Of a stretch of 64,000 nucleotides of DNA, positions 15,959 through 32,429 are shown one piece after another (position 1 is the stretch's first letter; the number at the start of each line of letters is the position of its first letter). The stretch is from Methanomassiliicoccales archaeon (lineage in GTDB: Archaea; Thermoplasmatota; Thermoplasmata; RBG-16-68-12; SOIM01): NCBI GenBank assembly GCA_030593885.1, contig JAUVGH010000006.1, positions 180-64,179 of the forward strand, read 5' to 3'. The notes under the pieces were generated by a model that searched no databases, was not told the origin of the DNA, and saw only the letters and a program-made list of their open reading frames with translations. The translations under genes and the position numbers were made by a program.

Positions 15959-16009
15959 CGCACCCGTATGGGAGCACGTGTTAAAACTCTTTTTGAGAAT
16001 TAAGGCAAC

Positions 16010-16020
16010 ACTTTTAAGTA
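16010..16020 (+). promoter_or_regulatory. ACTTTTAAGTA motif, copy 1 (TATA-like, palindromic core), upstream of GTPase 1
   Basis: The identical 11-mer occurs only at 16010, 16671 and 17347 in my reading of the window. Confidence 0.5.
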
Positions 16021-16068
16021 GAAACGGAAGGCTGGAATTCCCATACTGCCAGCGTTGGACTTGCGGGT

Positions 16069-16644
16069 GTGACTATCGTGAGCGAACTCGAAAAGGTAAA
16101 GGCGAAGATATGTCTCGTTGGAGAGGCCGCAGTGGGTAAGACCTCACTCATAAGGCGGTACGTTCTCGACGATTTTGACGACAAGTACATTACGACGCTT
16201 GGTGCGAAGGTGTCCAAGAAGATGATGGAGTTCGATGTGCCTAATAACGGTATACGCATCGGAATGGACCTGACCATCTGGGACATTATGGGCGAGAAGG
16301 GGTTCAGGGACCTGGTCAAAGAAGCTTTCTTTGTTGGGACCCGAGGGATACTGGCAGTGTGCGACATAACTCGATATGATACGCTAAAGGAACTGGATGA
16401 TTGGGTCCAGTCCGTTTTCAAGGTGGTCGGGAACATCCCGGTGATATTCGCTGTCAACAAGGTCGATCTTAAGGACGAGGTTCTTCTGATGTACGGTGAC
16501 TCCGAGCTCGACCAGGCATCCAGAGCGTTCGATGCAACCTATTTGTACACCAGTGCAAAGACGGGTGAGAACGTCGAGGAAGCTTTCAGGTTGATGGGCG
16601 AAAAGATTGTTGAATCCAGTATTTCTCCTCGATTGGCAAAGTGA
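16069..16644 (+). CDS. Small Ras/Rab-like GTPase, paralog 1
   Basis: 191 aa. G1 GEAAVGKT, switch I YITTLGA, G3 WDIMGEKGF (Glu where Ras has Gln61), G4 NKVD, G5 [13 protein letters not shown]. Start is GTG 16069, or GTG 16078 after an SD-like GGGTGTGA. Confidence 0.88.
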
Positions 16645-16667
16645 TAAACACCCGTGAGAATCCCCAC

Positions 16668-16683
16668 GATACTTTTAAGTATC
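16668..16683 (+). promoter_or_regulatory. GATACTT-TT-AAGTATC perfect inverted repeat containing motif copy 2, upstream of GTPase 2
   Basis: The centre lies about 28 nt upstream of ATG 16706, which fits a TATA box driving a leaderless mRNA. The 7-bp arms are perfectly complementary. Confidence 0.55.
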
Positions 16684-16705
16684 TCAGAATTATAGAAATA
16701 CCTCG

Positions 16706-17311
16706 ATGTGTCCTGACTTTTCTGAAGATGGAGAATCCGTGTCGACATCCGGAGCGCAGACCAAGAAGGTCAAGAGCAAGATCTGCCTCATCGGAGAGAA
16801 GGCTGTAGGTAAGACCAGTCTGATCAGACAGTACGTTACGAACATGTTCGACGACAGATACATCACCACCGTCGGTACGAAGGTCTCCAAGAAGGAGATG
16901 TTGATAAAGAAGCCTGAGCACGGTTTCGACGTTCAGATCGACATGACCATATGGGACATCATGGGGGAAAAGGGATTCAGGGAGCTTCTGAAGGAAGCTT
17001 ATTTCTACGGCGCCAACGGAATACTCGGGGTGGCGGACATCACCCGGGAGAAGACATTGGATGACCTGGACGATTGGATCGACTCCACACTGAAGACCGC
17101 TGGAAAGGTACCGCTTTTGATCGCGATTAACAAGACCGATCTGGAAGAGGCAGTGGAGGTAGGCGACAAAGAGGTTCTTCAGTTGGCGAAGGCCTTCAAT
17201 TGCCCTTTCATCTACACGAGTGCCAAGGAAGGCGGCAATGTCGAGGAAGCGTTCTACCAGTTGGGTGAGATGACCTTGGACGCCCAGTTGGGTTTTGTGA
17301 AGCCTGAGTGA
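16706..17311 (+). CDS. Small Ras/Rab-like GTPase, paralog 2
   Basis: 201 aa. G1 [43 protein letters not shown]5 run at 17322-17326 follows the stop. Confidence 0.9.
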   Translation: MCPDFSEDGESVSTSGAQTKKVKSKICLIGEKAVGKTSLIRQYVTNMFDDRYITTVGTKVSKKEMLIKKPEHGFDVQIDMTIWDIMGEKGFRELLKEAYFYGANGILGVADITREKTLDDLDDWIDSTLKTAGKVPLLIAINKTDLEEAVEVGDKEVLQLAKAFNCPFIYTSAKEGGNVEEAFYQLGEMTLDAQLGFVKPE

Positions 17312-17343
17312 CATTCGCTCGTTTTTGAGCCAGACCGCTATCC

Positions 17344-17359
17344 GATACTTTTAAGTATT
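17344..17359 (+). promoter_or_regulatory. GATACTTTTAAGTATT motif, copy 3, 160 nt upstream of the giant surface-protein gene
   Basis: The 16 nt CGATACTTTTAAGTAT (17343-17358) are identical to the copy-2 stretch at 16667-16682. Confidence 0.5.
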
Positions 17360-17518
17360 TCTGGCTTAATGAGAACGGTTGCATTCCCTTGTCGATTTGC
17401 GTGTATATTTGGTAACGCCCCTATTGGAGAAGACGCCAGCAGACTTGAGCTACTGGGGCTGAAGCCAGCATCGGGGTGTGAAGAAGGGGGAACTGTTCCC
17501 TAGCCTCGGGGAAAAGCC

Positions 17519-20500
17519 ATGAGAGATCCCAACCTCACACGGAAGGCAATCCATCTCCTCGTTCTAATCGTTGTAGTGCAGAGCATGATGGTAGGATTCT
17601 CAAATAGACCTGTCTCCGGCCAAGAGCCAGTGGTCTCTGATGTTGGTAGTTGGAGGAGAACAGCCACCTGGACCTTGAACGATCCCGGATACTACACCAG
17701 CGAGAACGTGACCTTCCAGGGAGGAGGTGCGAATCTCTCACTTGACGGGTATTCTTGGAACGAAACCTCATCAAGCGACTTCTCGGATGGTTCCTGGGAT
17801 GATAATGTTACCATCACCTCAGATGGGAATCTTACCCTGAAACATGATGATACGAACCTCGTCCAGAACGGGGATTTCAGCACAGGCTCTGACTGGAGCT
17901 ATGCTGACGGAGCGGGAGGAAATGTGCTGTCCGAAAGGGATGGCCTGCTTGAGAACGCCCACCTTCACCATTATGCTGCACCTGGATCTGCCATGCTATT
18001 TGAGGACTTTGAATTCCCTGGCAACGTCACCAATTGGACTAACCTTGGTGCCGGCACGACGCTTTCCTTCAATAACACCGGACATCTGAGCTCTCGATCC
18101 ATGGATATTGGGTGGTTGCCTCTTCTTCCGACAGATGCAGGTGGCGCCCGAAGATCAGCGGTGACATCATGGGACTGGTCCCTGTACAATAGACTGAGTC
18201 TCTGGATAACGACAGACATATCATCGGGGAATCTCAATGTCCACATCAACATCATTGACATCACTATGTCCTCATGGACATCGTCGCCGAAGAACGTGTC
18301 CCTTATCGGAGGGTGGAGAATGTACACTTTCGACTTGGAGGGTACAATTGACTACTCTCAAATCAAATCTCTGGACATACTATTCGACAATCTCCCTGGC
18401 GATGGAATCACTGAGAAGATGGTCACTATCGACGATATCCAGCTATTTGGTTTGAAGGTCTTTGATGAGACAGCCTATGCCAACCAGACCTTCTCCAAAT
18501 CGAATTGGACAGATAGCAGCCCCGGAAGTGTTGCACTTAGCTTTGATGTGGCAATAGAAGACGAACTGAACATCGCCGAATTCAACCTTTCTCTTTCAGT
18601 CTCTAACTCAACAAGCTCGTACAAGTGGGAGAAGACCAGTGTTGTTACGCCCTATCAGGCCAACGTAGTTGTCGATATTAGCTGGTTGATGGCCGAACCG
18701 GGGAACTACGACATAAGCCTTCAGCTGCGTCTATCCATAAGCACTCGTCTCGAGACGAGCTTTTCTTCGAGATTCGACAACATCAGCATTGTCGCCCCCA
18801 ATCGAAATAGCGGAACATATTTGTCCGACCCTCGCGACACGCTCTCCCAGTCTATCTGGGGTACCGTCTTCTGGGGGGAAGGTCCTACAGATCCAGAGAC
18901 CGATATCCGTATCTCAACAAGGACTGGCAATTCCAGCAACACGGCTGATGGATCATGGTCTGGCTGGGACACACATCTCGCCAACTCAATCATGTCTCCC
19001 CCAAACAGTTACATCCAATACAGGGTCGATCTCAACACGACCAACGCCAGCAAGGGTCCGATACTCACCAACATCAGCTTGAGTTATGACCAATACCCTC
19101 GAATCGGCACCGTTGAAACAGACAACTTCACTGTACCAGATCTTCACTCCTGGGAGGTCTTTGAGGTAAACGAGACCATTCTCCCCGAGACCGAGATAGA
19201 CTACTACTTCTCTTCTGACCTAGGAAGTAATTGGGTCCCCATCGGTGACGGGGCAAACCTATCATTCGTCACCAACAACACCATCAAACTGAAAGCCGAG
19301 CTCAAGACATCCAACACCACCTTCACTCCACAGTTGCTTGAGTTGAGACTCACCTATGAGTACACAGGGCCGCTCGACCACATCCACATGTCCGATTCGT
19401 TCCTCTCCACGACAGCTAACACCACCCTCTTCCTGTCGGCCTGGGGCCACGACATACTTCATCGAAACGTCAGTTTCACTCAGAAGTGGGAGACCGACGA
19501 TCCGGTCGGGTCGGTCGATGCCTTCGGGAACTACACTGCCGGCAAGGTCGGGAGCTGGAGGGTCTACTGCAACAACACCGCTGACACGATCTCCAACTGG
19601 ACCACGGTCGACGTGTCCGCTGGTTCTCTATTCAGGATTGGGATCGATCCGTGGGACCCTGGAACGCTTACCGCGGATGATCAACTTCAGTTCAATGCCA
19701 CTGGCTACGACGTGATGGACAACCCCTTCACTATCACACCCAACTGGTCCGTATCAGGCGGCATTGGCACTGTAGATTCTGGCCCGAGCGCCACATCCCT
19801 CTTCCAGGCCACTCAAACCGGGACGGGTCGGGTCAGCATAACTGATGGAATCCACACGAACCAAACCAACCTGTTCTCTGTCGTCGCTGGACAGCTGGCC
19901 TCGATAGACGTTTCACCCTCTCCCGTGGACCTTCTGCCCGACGAATCAACTGTCTTCACGGCTGAAGGATTTGACGGAGACGGAAACTCACTAGCACTTA
20001 CTTCCACATCTTGGGAAACGAACGCAGGCACCATAACCGGGAGCACACCCAACATTGCCAACTTCACCGCCCAATCCACGGAGCTGTTGGGTGGATATGT
20101 GAGGGCAACCCAGGATTCCATTTCAGGTGATGCCGTTGTCAACGTGGATGACAATGACGATCCACCGCAGATCCAAGGCGTTGTGCCAGACCAGCTGAAG
20201 ACCGAGGACCATGGTACGTGGACACTAGACCTTTCTTCCTTCGCCAGCGATCAGGAGGACGACAATTCTAAGCTCAAGTGGAGGGTCACTGCCGATGATT
20301 CGTCCCTATACACGATTGCAGGAGAGGACCAACCCGGGAACCATGTTCTCACATTCTCCACAAAGCAGGACGCCAACGGAAATAACGAGGTCACGCTCTG
20401 GTTGATTGACACTCGTGGCCAGACTTCCCAGCAGTCACTCTGGGTCAACATCACCCCTGTGAATGACAGACCATCGATATTCGCCCCGGACAAGGTCTTT

Positions 20501-22387
20501 GTCAGGTTCGACGTGCCAAGCCCTGAGGACTACTCCTCTTATGTCGATGACGTGGACAACCCCATTGGAGATCTGACGATATCTACGGACGATCCTGGTC
20601 ACACATCAGTTCAGGGCCTGCAGGTCACCTACGAGTATCCAGAGAGCATGGTGGGGGAACCAGTCTTTGTCATCCTGACGGTTTCTGACGGGCTTGACCA
20701 GGCTCAGGATGTGGTGGAGGTCGTCGTAACCAGCAATTACCCTCCCCGCACTCTCACCCCAATCCCGGATGTTGTCATGAACGAGGATGAGATCCTCAAC
20801 GATCATTTCGACCTGAACGATCACTTCGAAGATCCGGACGACAGCCAACTCACCTTCGGGTCGCTCTCTCAGAGAGTGGGAATAGATATCGATTCCAATG
20901 GTTTGGTCTCCCTCCATCCAGAGGCGAACTGGTTCGGAGACGAACTGGTGATGTTCTCCGCCACGGACAGTTCTGGTGCCGTTGCGTACGATCCGGTGTC
21001 CGTCAGCGTGCTACCCCTAAACGATCCACCCAGCATTGGAGGCTTGCCAGACATAACGATTCACTATGGCATCACATTCGATTTTGATGTTTCACCCTAC
21101 ATTTCTGACGTTGACAATCTGATCAGTGAGCTGACGATCTTCTGCTTGGATGCTGTCTGCTCGACCATTCAGGGCACCACCATCTCGTTCATGTATCTGA
21201 CTGAGACAACGGTCGTGGCGACCGTTACCGTCAGCGATGGAGAGTATCAGGATTCTGATATCATGGGGGTCCGAGTGACAGACAACAATCCGCCCGTGTC
21301 CAAAGGCCTTCCAGATGTGTTCTTCAATGAGGATGAGGCTCTTCCATCTGCTTTCGCCCTTGAGGACTATTTCAGTGACCTGGAGAGCGCCACCCTGACC
21401 TTCTTGGTCAACCAGACCCAGTCCTACGTCCAGGTCTCAATTGGGATCGACACCGTGGTATCATTCTCATCAACAGAGAACTGGAGCGGCCAACAGATCA
21501 TTGTGTTCAGGGCCGTTGACGGGAACGGCGCGGTCGTTGAGGATTCGATCATTGCCACAGTGATCCCTGTGAACGATGCTCCCTTCATCTCCCCGATCCC
21601 TAGGCAGAGTGGCGAGAAGAACAAGGCCTGGCTACTCGATCTAAGTTCATACATCTTTGATTCCGACAACAAGACCGACGACCTTCGGATAGAGTCTGAC
21701 TTCGAGTATGTGATTGTGGCCGGACACTTCCTGATCTTCAATTGCGAAGAGAGCTTCGATTCGAGGAATACCAATGCAACCGTGAACGATGGTCTGCTTC
21801 AGAGCTCCAGCCCATTCGAGGTCAGCGTCACCTCTCCTGTCAACCCTCAGGTCGAGATGTACATATGGCCGACGTCGATAGGCATCATCCTGCTGGGATT
21901 GGTCGGATTGCTTTACTGGAGAGCATCCAGGGGTTTCGTGCTGGAGGACCTCTTCGTCATCGGAAAGGACGGTAAGCTCCGGGTCCACAAGACCACGCGG
22001 ACCAGACCCGACAGAGATGAGGATCTTTTCTCCGGAATGTTGACCGTCATTCGAGATTTCACCGCAGACACATTCAGGGAAGAGAAGGGCACCCTGAAGT
22101 CATTCGAGCTGGAAGAGGATAAGAAGGTCATCATGGAGTCTGCAGAGGGCTTCTATGTTGCATTGATTTTCTCCGGAAAGGAACCCGGGTGGGCGCCGAA
22201 GTCGCTTGAAGCCTTCTCCCAGGACATGGAGACCATGTACGGTCCTTTGATCACGTCTTGGTCGGGAGCCATGGATGAGTTGGGAGACCTTCCTAATATG
22301 GCCGATTTCTTCATACATAAAAGAAAATACAGCGTCGGGGACTGGCAACCAACTGAAGATGAACTACCGTTCGAAGAAGCGGACTAG
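17519..22387 (+). CDS. Giant sequon-rich surface protein: N-terminal hydrophobic anchor or signal, CBM/Ig-like regions, six cadherin-like modules, one TM helix and a 155-aa cytoplasmic Roadblock/MglB-like tail
   Basis: 1622 aa. N-terminal LLVLIVVVQSMMVGF. Dense NxS/T sequons (NVT, NLS, NET, NVT and NLT within about 50 residues). Modules end in PVNDRPS, LNDPPS and PVNDAPF. TM helix WPTSIGIILLGLVGLLYW at 21866-21919. The tail at 21920-22384 reads LFVIGKDGKLRVH..DLFSGMLTVIRDFTADTF..LKSFELEEDKKVIMESAEGFYVALIFSG. Confidence 0.9.
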   Translation: MRDPNLTRKAIHLLVLIVVVQSMMVGFSNRPVSGQEPVVSDVGSWRRTATWTLNDPGYYTSENVTFQGGGANLSLDGYSWNETSSSDFSDGSWDDNVTITSDGNLTLKHDDTNLVQNGDFSTGSDWSYADGAGGNVLSERDGLLENAHLHHYAAPGSAMLFEDFEFPGNVTNWTNLGAGTTLSFNNTGHLSSRSMDIGWLPLLPTDAGGARRSAVTSWDWSLYNRLSLWITTDISSGNLNVHINIIDITMSSWTSSPKNVSLIGGWRMYTFDLEGTIDYSQIKSLDILFDNLPGDGITEKMVTIDDIQLFGLKVFDETAYANQTFSKSNWTDSSPGSVALSFDVAIEDELNIAEFNLSLSVSNSTSSYKWEKTSVVTPYQANVVVDISWLMAEPGNYDISLQLRLSISTRLETSFSSRFDNISIVAPNRNSGTYLSDPRDTLSQSIWGTVFWGEGPTDPETDIRISTRTGNSSNTADGSWSGWDTHLANSIMSPPNSYIQYRVDLNTTNASKGPILTNISLSYDQYPRIGTVETDNFTVPDLHSWEVFEVNETILPETEIDYYFSSDLGSNWVPIGDGANLSFVTNNTIKLKAELKTSNTTFTPQLLELRLTYEYTGPLDHIHMSDSFLSTTANTTLFLSAWGHDILHRNVSFTQKWETDDPVGSVDAFGNYTAGKVGSWRVYCNNTADTISNWTTVDVSAGSLFRIGIDPWDPGTLTADDQLQFNATGYDVMDNPFTITPNWSVSGGIGTVDSGPSATSLFQATQTGTGRVSITDGIHTNQTNLFSVVAGQLASIDVSPSPVDLLPDESTVFTAEGFDGDGNSLALTSTSWETNAGTITGSTPNIANFTAQSTELLGGYVRATQDSISGDAVVNVDDNDDPPQIQGVVPDQLKTEDHGTWTLDLSSFASDQEDDNSKLKWRVTADDSSLYTIAGEDQPGNHVLTFSTKQDANGNNEVTLWLIDTRGQTSQQSLWVNITPVNDRPSIFAPDKVFVRFDVPSPEDYSSYVDDVDNPIGDLTISTDDPGHTSVQGLQVTYEYPESMVGEPVFVILTVSDGLDQAQDVVEVVVTSNYPPRTLTPIPDVVMNEDEILNDHFDLNDHFEDPDDSQLTFGSLSQRVGIDIDSNGLVSLHPEANWFGDELVMFSATDSSGAVAYDPVSVSVLPLNDPPSIGGLPDITIHYGITFDFDVSPYISDVDNLISELTIFCLDAVCSTIQGTTISFMYLTETTVVATVTVSDGEYQDSDIMGVRVTDNNPPVSKGLPDVFFNEDEALPSAFALEDYFSDLESATLTFLVNQTQSYVQVSIGIDTVVSFSSTENWSGQQIIVFRAVDGNGAVVEDSIIATVIPVNDAPFISPIPRQSGEKNKAWLLDLSSYIFDSDNKTDDLRIESDFEYVIVAGHFLIFNCEESFDSRNTNATVNDGLLQSSSPFEVSVTSPVNPQVEMYIWPTSIGIILLGLVGLLYWRASRGFVLEDLFVIGKDGKLRVHKTTRTRPDRDEDLFSGMLTVIRDFTADTFREEKGTLKSFELEEDKKVIMESAEGFYVALIFSGKEPGWAPKSLEAFSQDMETMYGPLITSWSGAMDELGDLPNMADFFIHKRKYSVGDWQPTEDELPFEEAD
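20147..21850 (+). repeat. Six divergent ~95-100-aa tandem cadherin-like modules (protein-level repeats) in the ectodomain
   Basis: Recurrent module boundaries: DDNDDPPQI, ITPVNDRPSI, VTSNYPPRTL, VLPLNDPPSI, VTDNNPPVSK, VIPVNDAPFI. Each module has acidic D-x-D/N-rich loops. Confidence 0.6.
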
Positions 22388-31636: not shown

Positions 31637-31901
31637 GCCTCCTCACCCGTGCCTTATCTCCGAAATCCATTCCTTCAGAATGCTCTCGTCTACCTCTGTG
31701 TCTACGGTTATGTGAAAGGGGGTATTTGCCCTTTTCTCACGTTCAGTATCAGCGAAATAAGAACGAATGAATTGAGACTTCGTCATATCAGTGTGTTTCG
31801 ACAAGACATGTTCATTTCGTCACCTAAGGTTACGATATCAGAGAGAAATCCAACGAAAACCGTTAAGTATTAATAAGTATGCGACGATTCCCCTATTGGT
31901 T

Positions 31902-32429
31902 ATGAACATGACGGCTAGTTCCACTAAGAAAAAAATCCCCTCGGAATTGGCAACAAGATGGGAAGGGTTGGACCTCAAGCTTTTGCCAATAGACCAGATT
32001 GACATCCAGATCCTTTCCATGCTGAGGCTGAACTCCAGGGCCGCTAATATCGAAATCGCGAGGGATCTTGAGATAAGTGAGGCGACTGTGAGGAGGAGGA
32101 TAAAGAACCTCGAGCAGAAAGGGATCATCAAGGGATACAGTACATACATCGATTATCAGCTAATAGAGAATCCAGTCAAGGCATACGTCCACCTTGGCGT
32201 GTCCAGCGAGAACAGGGATGACGTCGTGAAGAAGATAGTCGCGCATAACAGAGCGGTTGCAGTGTATCGCGTGACCGGCGACTTCGAGATTCTCTGCGTG
32301 ATGCTCTTCGTTGATATGTCGGAGATGCAGACATTCATCGATTCCTATCTGAAGATGGACGGAATCACCCGAGTCCTTACCCAGATTGTAATGAGTCCAT
32401 ACAAGGGAGTTCCCTGGACAGGAGTCTGA
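31902..32429 (+). CDS. Lrp/AsnC family transcriptional regulator
   Basis: DIQILSMLRLNSRAANIEIARDLEISEATVRRRIKNLEQKGIIKGY plus a RAM-like C-terminal domain. ATG 31902 lies about 29 nt downstream of the AT-rich AAGTATTAATAAGTAT. Confidence 0.85.
   Translation: MNMTASSTKKKIPSELATRWEGLDLKLLPIDQIDIQILSMLRLNSRAANIEIARDLEISEATVRRRIKNLEQKGIIKGYSTYIDYQLIENPVKAYVHLGVSSENRDDVVKKIVAHNRAVAVYRVTGDFEILCVMLFVDMSEMQTFIDSYLKMDGITRVLTQIVMSPYKGVPWTGV

Follow-up and report, generated by a model that had tools for sequence, protein, structure and literature searches.

How might a protein at the cell surface be connected to small GTPases inside a prokaryotic cell? The question is raised by three genes in a stretch of 64,000 nucleotides (nt) of DNA, here called the window, from a Methanomassiliicoccales archaeon, an uncultured member of the Thermoplasmata (contig JAUVGH010000006.1, positions 180 to 64,179). 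A first-pass annotation, made from the letters alone, had picked out three same-strand open reading frames (ORFs) of 191, 201 and 1622 amino acids (aa), and the ORF coordinates bear this out:

16069..16644, + strand: gene of GTPase a (ORF; 191 aa; GTG start)
16706..17311, + strand: gene of GTPase b (ORF; 201 aa)
17519..22387, + strand: receptor gene, for a type-I membrane glycoprotein (ORF; 1622 aa; topology, sequons, homologs)

The answer that we think probable, if well short of certain, is that the receptor ends in a longin platform, anchored in the membrane, by which the two Rab-like GTPases are docked or regulated, and that the three genes are a conserved module of the Thermoplasmatota. 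Their arrangement suggests that a direct connection between a receptor and GTPases exists outside the eukaryotes and Asgard archaea. Longin and Roadblock domains, usually as dimers, serve as platforms, as cores of guanine nucleotide exchange factors (GEFs) or as helpers of GTPase-activating proteins (GAPs), examples being MglB, Ragulator, TRAPP, Mon1-Ccz1, FLCN/GATOR1/C9orf72-SMCR8 and SRX-SRβ.

The evidence that carries this answer starts with the 155-aa cytoplasmic tail of the receptor, which follows a single transmembrane (TM) helix:

21857..21919, + strand: single TM helix, aa ~1447-1467, then the positive-inside sequence RASR (from hydropathy)
21935..22321, + strand: cytoplasmic longin-type domain, tail residues 6-134, aa 1473-1601 (from AlphaFold2 and Foldseek)

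Modelled by AlphaFold2 (AF2) with an alignment of 55 sequences, the tail reached a predicted local distance difference test score (pLDDT) of 89.2 and a predicted template modelling score (pTM) of 0.84; the model from the single sequence was poor (pLDDT 43). Its elements run in the order β(6-15) β(20-25) α(30-51) β(60-63) β(68-74) β(78-86) α(92-112) α(118-134) and form an α/β/α sandwich with a five-stranded antiparallel sheet, in which the strand-strand-helix-strand-strand-strand core described in the first-pass annotation is present. The structural likeness to the Roadblock fold that had been claimed for the tail was recovered as well, since all 50 of the 50 best Foldseek matches of the model in the PDB were longin or Roadblock proteins. 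The longin-type matches comprise ζ-COP, the AP σ subunits, the TRAPP subunits Trs20, sedlin, Tca17, Bet5 and Trs23, and the longin domains of Sec22b and VAMP7, and the Roadblock-type matches LAMTOR2/3/4/5, MglB (3T12, 3T1R), MglC (7CT3), an Asgard Roadblock2 and dynein LC7. Most of the 50 are subunits of complexes that regulate or bind GTPases (TRAPP, Ragulator/LAMTOR, MglB, MglC, ζ-COP/Arf1, AP σ), and the best superposition was on Sec22b (1IFQ; TM-scores 0.63/0.75, root-mean-square deviation 3.1 Å over 135 columns).

Longin and Roadblock domains differ in the order of their elements, ββαβββαα and αββαβββα, respectively, and are related by circular permutation (Levine et al. 2013, PMC3747258). 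The tail has no helix before β1 and two helices after β5, which is the longin order and not the Roadblock one, and it is classed here as longin-type because its order fits the definition of Levine et al. 2013. Based on the model, we are confident that the tail belongs to the longin/Roadblock fold class, with a predicted longin topology. Weak sequence matches in some of the 55 family members, to Pfam Robl_LC7 in 10 and to the longin profiles Fuz_longin_1 and Intu_longin_1 in 4 and 3, point independently to this fold class. The first-pass assignment to Roadblock/MglB thus holds at the level of the fold class, MglB and the LAMTORs being among the matches, and fails at the level of topology and of the Pfam family Robl_LC7, which the window tail does not match. 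As β1 begins ~5 residues beyond the TM helix, the domain must lie immediately beneath the membrane. Within the domain, the β1-β2 hairpin and α1 (2.69 bits per position) are the best conserved and α2 and α3 (1.6-1.8 bits) the least, and the conserved residues His23, Arg26/27 and Asp33 lie beside α1. It is the α1 'top' face to which the GTPase binds on longin and Roadblock dimers, the platforms of small GTPases (Levine et al. 2013, PMC3747258), and in known platforms α1 supplies part of the dimer interface in addition to the GTPase-binding face (PMC3747258).

The two genes upstream of the receptor encode paralogous GTPases with full G1-G5 motifs, as had been noted at first pass and as is borne out by matches to Pfam Ras (E 6.5e-30 for GTPase a, 1.3e-34 for GTPase b) and by motif alignment. 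Each consists of a G domain only, with no extra domain, and for both the Pfam Ras and Roc scores lie far above those of Arf or Gtr1/RagA. The best PDB relatives of GTPase a are a Thorarchaeota Rab (7EZB; 1.3e-25), Rab21, Rab6 and Rab1, and those of GTPase b are Sec4, the same Thorarchaeota Rab (7.8e-23), Rab21 and Rab7; overall, Rabs and Ran lead the PDB matches of both, and neither belongs to the MglA family. With complete G1-G5 motifs and Rabs as closest relatives, both qualify as Rab-like, and several of their relatives bear the NCBI label 'Rab family GTPase'. All named relatives come from Thermoplasmata, Methanomassiliicoccales or unclassified euryarchaeal metagenome-assembled genomes (MAGs).

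The motifs themselves are distinctive at two positions. GTPase a has the P-loop GEAAVGKTS, with NKVD and TSAK, and GTPase b has GEKAVGKTS and the same switch; in the complete operons both ortholog groups keep G1-G5 intact (GE[A/K]AVGKTS, Y(I)TT(L/I)G(A/T)..., NKxD, TSAK). Switch II reads WDIMGEKGF in both paralog groups, which puts Glu at the catalytic Gln site of DxxGQ, opposite the Gln itself when aligned with the Thorarchaeota Rab and Rab21, and Ras position 12 is Ala in GTPase a and Lys in GTPase b. The Glu-for-Gln exchange and the Lys of GTPase b are kept across all operons. The C-termini (...SPRLAK and ...GFVKPE) are not conserved and have no Cys prenylation motif. By Ras and Rab standards, Gln-less GTPases without a lipid anchor should hydrolyse GTP poorly alone and have no membrane attachment of their own. 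Lacking both the catalytic Gln and a Gly at position 12, GTPases a and b therefore probably need a partner for GTP hydrolysis or exchange, and the conserved Glu and Lys substitutions predict an unusual hydrolysis chemistry.

Is the neighbourhood of these genes more than a peculiarity of one genome? A metagenome scan with a 12-sequence alignment yielded 80 loci, 38-50% identical in the tail to the window protein; in 33 of them the contig extends 1.4 kb or more upstream of the receptor gene, so that synteny was testable. Both GTPase genes lie immediately 5' of the receptor, on the same strand and in the order a-b-receptor, in 30 of the 33, so that the succession of two GTPases and a giant TM protein, for which the first-pass annotation had proposed a check in relatives, is indeed kept. 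Neither a lack of fold matches nor an absence of the neighbourhood in relatives, both named there as grounds for refutation, was observed. The other three (L065, L074, L084) are explained: in each, a 425-aa gene is present or implied between the receptor and GTPase b, and too little contig is therefore left to show both GTPases. The same gene order is found at the locus of the closest homolog (63% tail identity), and the complete operons cover 9 tail clusters below 70% identity; three further loci (L001-L003) are uninformative on synteny because their contigs break inside the giant gene. When the GTPase pairs of 28 complete operons were aligned, the first gene was in 28/28 closer to GTPase a (58-70% identity) than to GTPase b (50-56%), and the second gene showed the opposite pattern, nearer b than a, in 28/28. 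Given this strict orthology in a fixed order, the a/b duplication must be old, with both copies and their order retained.

The product of the inserted 425-aa gene is all-helical and soluble, and the insertion is found in one clade (L051:6268-7545, L065:920-2197, L084:3-1334; also L052, L057, L062 and L076).

The three genes share, in addition, a promoter-like box:

16010..16020, + strand: box ACTTTTAAGTA 5' of GTPase a, with the core TTAAGTA at 16014-16020
16671..16681, + strand: box ACTTTTAAGTA 5' of GTPase b, ~31 nt before the ATG
17347..17357, + strand: box ACTTTTAAGTA 5' of the receptor gene

Even at 1 mismatch, this 11-mer has exactly 3 sites in the 64-kb window (0.28 expected). The TTAAGTA core was found 98 times in 643 kb of distant loci with a mean GC of 65%, where chance would give ~12; 86 of these sites are no more than 260 nt upstream of a module gene, and of the remaining 12 most fall just within ORF calls of module genes that appear over-extended. 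The loci with the box include L004, L089 and ~80 metagenome loci. Each class of module gene has its own conserved box flanks, those of the receptor in distant loci being CGaAAtcaTTAAGTA, which resembles a B recognition element (BRE). A box before each gene argues for the co-regulation of three separately promoted genes, and the three are probably co-regulated; we read TTAAGTA as a module-dedicated promoter variant of TATA/BRE type or an overlapping operator. That it is simply the general TATA box of the lineage was ruled out, the motif being nearly absent from other genes. In several loci a second receptor paralog lies downstream, without a TTAAGTA box of its own.

The tail domain has a life beyond this module. 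An exhaustive HMMER search returned 1321 cluster representatives with E<=1e-3, 270 of them with E<=1e-10, a large family for a domain that neither Pfam nor NCBIfam annotates in the window tail; a word-indexed homolog search, even with an alignment as the query, gave near-identical fragments only, and a contig scan with the single tail sequence returned only a near-identical MAG contig. The dominant architecture comprises a signal peptide, an ectodomain, a TM helix and the C-terminal domain, and the layout of TM helix followed by domain is common to most family members. In a second architecture, soluble proteins of ~1900-2400 aa have 2-3 internal copies of the domain along with CARDB and DUF5915 (P0005-P0008, P0010, P0027 and others), one such multi-copy protein coming from a Methanomassiliicoccales MAG. 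In a third, of ~570 aa, four TM helices precede a tandem pair of domains (P0071, P0072, P0078, P0082). Loci L085-L088 belong to these second and third architectures. In a few members the domain is extended, either by a common unannotated C-terminal region of ~290 aa (P0129, P0143, P0140) or by long coiled coils (P0117, P0115), and these extensions hint at further partners.

On the account that we favour, the longin tail would be at once a membrane dock and a regulatory platform for GTPases a and b, probably in dimeric form like other platforms of the longin/Roadblock type. It would bring the anchor-less GTPases to the membrane and would couple the state of the ectodomain (ligand, contact or clustering) to their location and bound nucleotide, or run in the reverse direction. 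A part for the tail as catalytic helper is worth testing, given the missing Gln and the conserved His23, Arg26/27 and Asp33. Direct binding, dimerisation, a GAP, GEF or anchor role, the direction of signalling and the cellular output are elements that we infer, as is the role in outside-in signalling or polarity proposed at first pass.

Several observations weigh against this account. The Foldseek E-values of the tail are modest (best 2.6e-4), with TM-scores of 0.4-0.63, and by sequence the window tail has no significant longin or Roadblock match in Pfam (none at E<=1), NCBIfam or the PDB, where phmmer returned spurious matches only, such as tandem interferon-gamma constructs; nor did the tail-family profile give anything real against PDB sequences. 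No Rosetta-stone fusion of the tail domain with a GTPase was present among 153 representatives. There is no GTPase gene beside the multi-copy genes in two complete loci (L087, L088), and gene linkage of the domain to GTPases is thus not universal but a property of the single-TM receptor class; the contigs of P0005 and of the four-TM P0071 end 381 and 266 bp upstream and say little on adjacent GTPases. Finally, many of the syntenic loci come from related uncultured lineages, and the 30 are thus not 30 independent events.

It is from such observations that the strongest of the alternatives draws, namely that the three genes are co-regulated without their products being in contact. The GTPases would then serve the biogenesis, export, glycosylation or turnover of the receptor, or an unrelated process, and the tail would be a sorting, oligomerisation or ligand-binding domain. 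The related domain architectures with no neighbouring GTPase would be expected in that case, and each module gene has its own promoter-like box, with a gap of 208 nt between GTPase b and the receptor gene, which is not the layout of a tight operon. SNARE longin domains and most of those in coat subunits, moreover, do not bind GTPases (PMC3747258). However, the strict gene order and a/b orthology have been kept in lineages with tails only 38-50% identical, no other fold class is so closely tied to small GTPases, and the GTPases have no other obvious route to the membrane; we consider the alternative unlikely, though it deserves to be reckoned with.

Rather doubtful, in our judgement, is the more specific proposal that the membrane-proximal longin domain recruits and switches the two Rab-like GTPases for local membrane remodelling (budding, contact or fusion, sorting). 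If true, the module would be a prokaryotic counterpart of the longin-Rab trafficking modules of eukaryotes, and both the longin arrangement and Rab-type partnerships would exist well outside the Asgard-eukaryote lineage.

A third possibility stays closer to the first-pass annotation: the tail could be a true Roadblock/MglB homolog, a GAP that sets polarity or motility in the manner of MglA-MglB. MglB and MglC are indeed among the fold matches (3T12, 3T1R and 7CT3), the lack of a catalytic Gln in both GTPases makes a GAP-like helper plausible, and Robl_LC7 is matched weakly by 10 of the 55 family members (best E 2.5e-5). The one such match that was inspected scored 15.1 bits, below the 23-bit cut-off, and placed profile positions 13-45 on β1-β2-α1, skipping the first 12 positions, that is, the Roadblock N-terminal helix, which together with the longin order of elements tells against homology to MglB, as do best superpositions on longin domains such as that of Sec22b. 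Sub-threshold matches were also seen to Fuz_longin_1 in 4/55 members (best 2.2e-4) and to Intu_longin_1 in 3/55, with none for the window tail; the two profiles describe the first longin domain in MON1/FUZ/HPS1 and in CCZ1/INTU. The GTPases, for their part, are closest to Rabs, and no motility or polarity genes lie in the neighbourhood of the module. The earlier comparison with MglA-MglB therefore keeps its force for the fold superfamily and loses it for the GTPases, which by PDB and Pfam matches are Rab-like and not MglA-like, and a true MglB-type GAP seems quite improbable.

That the genes are juxtaposed by chance, or that the tail is no real domain, could be argued from the window tail alone, with its want of a Pfam, NCBIfam or PDB sequence match and its poor single-sequence AF2 model, but is refuted by the 1321 representatives, the pLDDT of 89, the synteny in 30/33 loci and the module-specific box, and is given next to no credence here.

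What, then, would the favoured longin platform be coupled to outside the cell? The receptor begins with a hydrophobic signal or anchor (~aa 10-28), and its ectodomain has two main parts:

17621..19660, + strand: conserved, Trp-rich ectodomain 'head', ~aa 35-714 (from the alignment of receptor orthologs)
20174..21838, + strand: stalk of six Ig/cadherin-like modules of ~90-95 aa, aa 886-1440 (from Pfam Big_9, NCBIfam tandem-95 and a hidden Markov model (HMM) built from the protein itself)

The head is 25-49% identical over 600-740 aa across all receptor orthologs, has several Trp that are invariant in all receptors, and aligns with the entire ectodomain of the ~870-aa orthologs. No match to it was found in Pfam or the PDB, and judged by sequence it is an extracellular domain family with no recognisable relative in either. 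The long forms (window, L019, L020, L006) are longer by ~700 aa, inserted between the head and the TM helix; this region holds the repeat stalk in the window and is absent from the ~870-aa orthologs. Because the head is homologous in all receptors, the family core consists of the head, the TM helix and the tail. In the stalk, three strong repeats of ~95 aa (886-985, 1077-1171, 1261-1355) alternate with three divergent modules in a self-HMM search, Pfam Big_9 and NCBIfam tandem-95 match 3 stretches each, and NDxP-type linkers stand at aa 879, 982, 1073, 1168 and 1352.

Much of the first-pass description of this protein survives in amended form. The six cadherin-like modules it listed are approximately right, as three strong and three divergent ones, and the many N-x-S/T sequons it mentioned come to 38, all in the ectodomain, twice the mean of shuffled sequences (18.7 +/- 3.8). 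Its single TM helix and 155-aa tail stand, the start of the helix lying nearer 21857 than the 21866 first given (21866-21919). The giant adhesin-like protein is a large glycosylated surface protein, and its conserved ~700-aa head makes it more than a variable adhesin. For the family, the idea of a constant tail bearing a variable adhesin ectodomain was likewise ruled out, since every receptor has a homologous head.

Between its box and its start codon the receptor gene has a long leader:

17358..17518, + strand: long receptor leader, with conserved blocks and a hairpin in relatives (from the leader alignment)

Across loci this distance is roughly 100-170 nt. In the GC-rich lineages the blocks GATGG, CCCCTGA, GGGGAGGGG and TCTCGGGCCGGGAGCAGGGG are conserved (relatives include L011, L016, L024, L040, L051, L054, L072, L078, L079 and L083), and a hairpin whose stem sequence differs among lineages lies between CCCCTGA and GGGGAGGGG. 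This inner hairpin is stabler than shuffled sequences (z down to -4.9; Stouffer Z -4.9 over 28 unique segments); the z-scores of whole leaders taken as single sequences were not significant, and RNAalifold on a MAFFT alignment of the leaders gave no consensus structure. A known RNA family was ruled out in that no Rfam match was found. The leader may be a regulatory structure of the 5' untranslated region.

On the 5' side, the module is bordered on the opposite strand by genes for orotidine monophosphate (OMP) decarboxylase and a pyruvate:ferredoxin oxidoreductase cluster, and on the 3' side the receptor gene converges with an A-type ATP synthase operon. A locus with the same genes and 97% identity is present on MAG contig JAGLME010000014.1. 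In the genus of the closest homolog, an archaeosortase/exosortase-family gene (Pfam Exosortase_EpsH; L089:15097-15978, - strand) lies directly 3' of the receptor; the window has no exosortase gene at the corresponding place. With both strands scanned, the TTAAGTA core has 4 sites in the window, the fourth lying away from the module:

31863..31869, + strand: fourth TTAAGTA, ~40 nt 5' of a gene for an Lrp/AsnC-type regulator (likely start ATG 31903)

The regulator gene (31903-32429) is followed by HypB- and HypF-like genes. Its TTAAGTA is kept in three related loci (L001:9607, L002:10218, L003:10218) with the same CGAAAACCGTTAAGTA flank, and the flank, CGAAA...TTAAGTA, is the same as that at the receptor promoter. 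The Lrp/AsnC gene is thus a possible candidate for a regulator of the module, or for a gene co-regulated with it.

How the module stands beside known systems depends on which of its parts is compared. Longin and Roadblock domains, together with small GTPases, are central to membrane traffic and nutrient signalling in eukaryotes, and their prokaryotic roots are debated; since 2013, longin domains have been reported mainly in Asgard archaea. The 2013 review itself stated that longin domains are lacking in prokaryotes (PMC3747258). Asgard GTPase genes do not, as a rule, share operons with genes of Roadblock or longin proteins, and their partners therefore cannot be matched from the genome (PMC10933270). 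Single divergent Rab-like sequences, from a Thermoplasmatales archaeon and Aciduliprofundum, were noted without gene context in a survey of 2016 (Surkont & Pereira-Leal, PMC4915359), which describes neither the pairing of a and b nor the receptor partner; a 2014 survey of the Ras-superfamily GTPases of prokaryotes (PMC4316618) does not describe the module either. In the searchable literature, the coverage of which is incomplete, no account was found of a longin-tailed transmembrane receptor accompanied by paired Rab-like GTPases. The archaeal Rab-like GTPases, including the Thorarchaeota Rab 7EZB, are together with the eukaryotic Rabs the proteins most similar to GTPases a and b.

The value of the module lies in a pairing that the genome encodes: one TM-fused longin-type domain beside exactly two Rab-like GTPases, with a promoter signature of its own. 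It offers a small, defined and expressible system in which to ask how a longin platform handles Gln-less GTPases, and whether direct coupling of surface receptors to Ras-superfamily switches occurs in prokaryotes.

The closest likeness is to the longin platforms (TRAPP Bet5/Trs23/sedlin, Mon1-Ccz1, DENN, FLCN-FNIP, GATOR1 NPRL2/3, C9orf72-SMCR8 and SRα SRX-SRβ), whose order ββαβββαα and α/β/α sandwich recur in the tail model. As in these, the tail is partnered, here by gene linkage, with Rab-like GTPases, and the α1 top face is the most conserved. Unlike the platforms of eukaryotes and Asgard archaea, it is the tail of a type-I surface glycoprotein, it occurs in Thermoplasmatota, and its partners are two G-domain-only paralogs bearing Glu; unlike known longins, the window tail has no significant match to any longin Pfam family. 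In SRα-SRβ it is the GTPase that is anchored in the membrane, whereas here it is the longin domain. The Rag heterodimer on Ragulator likewise combines two paralogous GTPases with membrane-anchored Roadblock/longin scaffolds; the Rags, however, dimerise via C-terminal Roadblock domains of their own, which GTPases a and b (191 and 201 aa) do not have, and Ragulator is held by the lipid anchor of LAMTOR1 rather than by a transmembrane receptor.

MglA-MglB, a Ras-like GTPase with its Roadblock GAP in bacteria and archaea, and the Roadblock/LC7 proteins (LAMTOR2/3, DYNLRB) belong to the same fold superfamily as the tail and share with the module a partner gene that adjoins a small GTPase gene, but MglB is a small soluble Roadblock protein, whereas the receptor tail has the longin order and the GTPases of the module are Rab-like, not MglA-like. 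The ArvABC (OapABC) vesiculation operon was ruled out as an identity for the module, there being no DUF2073 or DUF2072 neighbours and Pfam Ras scoring far above Arf; that operon has one GTPase, the Arf/Sar-like ArvA, which bears an amphipathic helix and whose partners are the SepF-like ArvB (DUF2073) and the Zn-ribbon protein ArvC (DUF2072; Mills et al. 2024, PMC10927574). What the two have in common is a conserved cluster centred on small GTPases, with a membrane role proposed for ArvABC in Euryarchaeota. Taken together, these comparisons present the module as a variant of the longin/Roadblock-GTPase partnership, one that differs from Roadblock proper, MglA-MglB, Rag-Ragulator and ArvABC.

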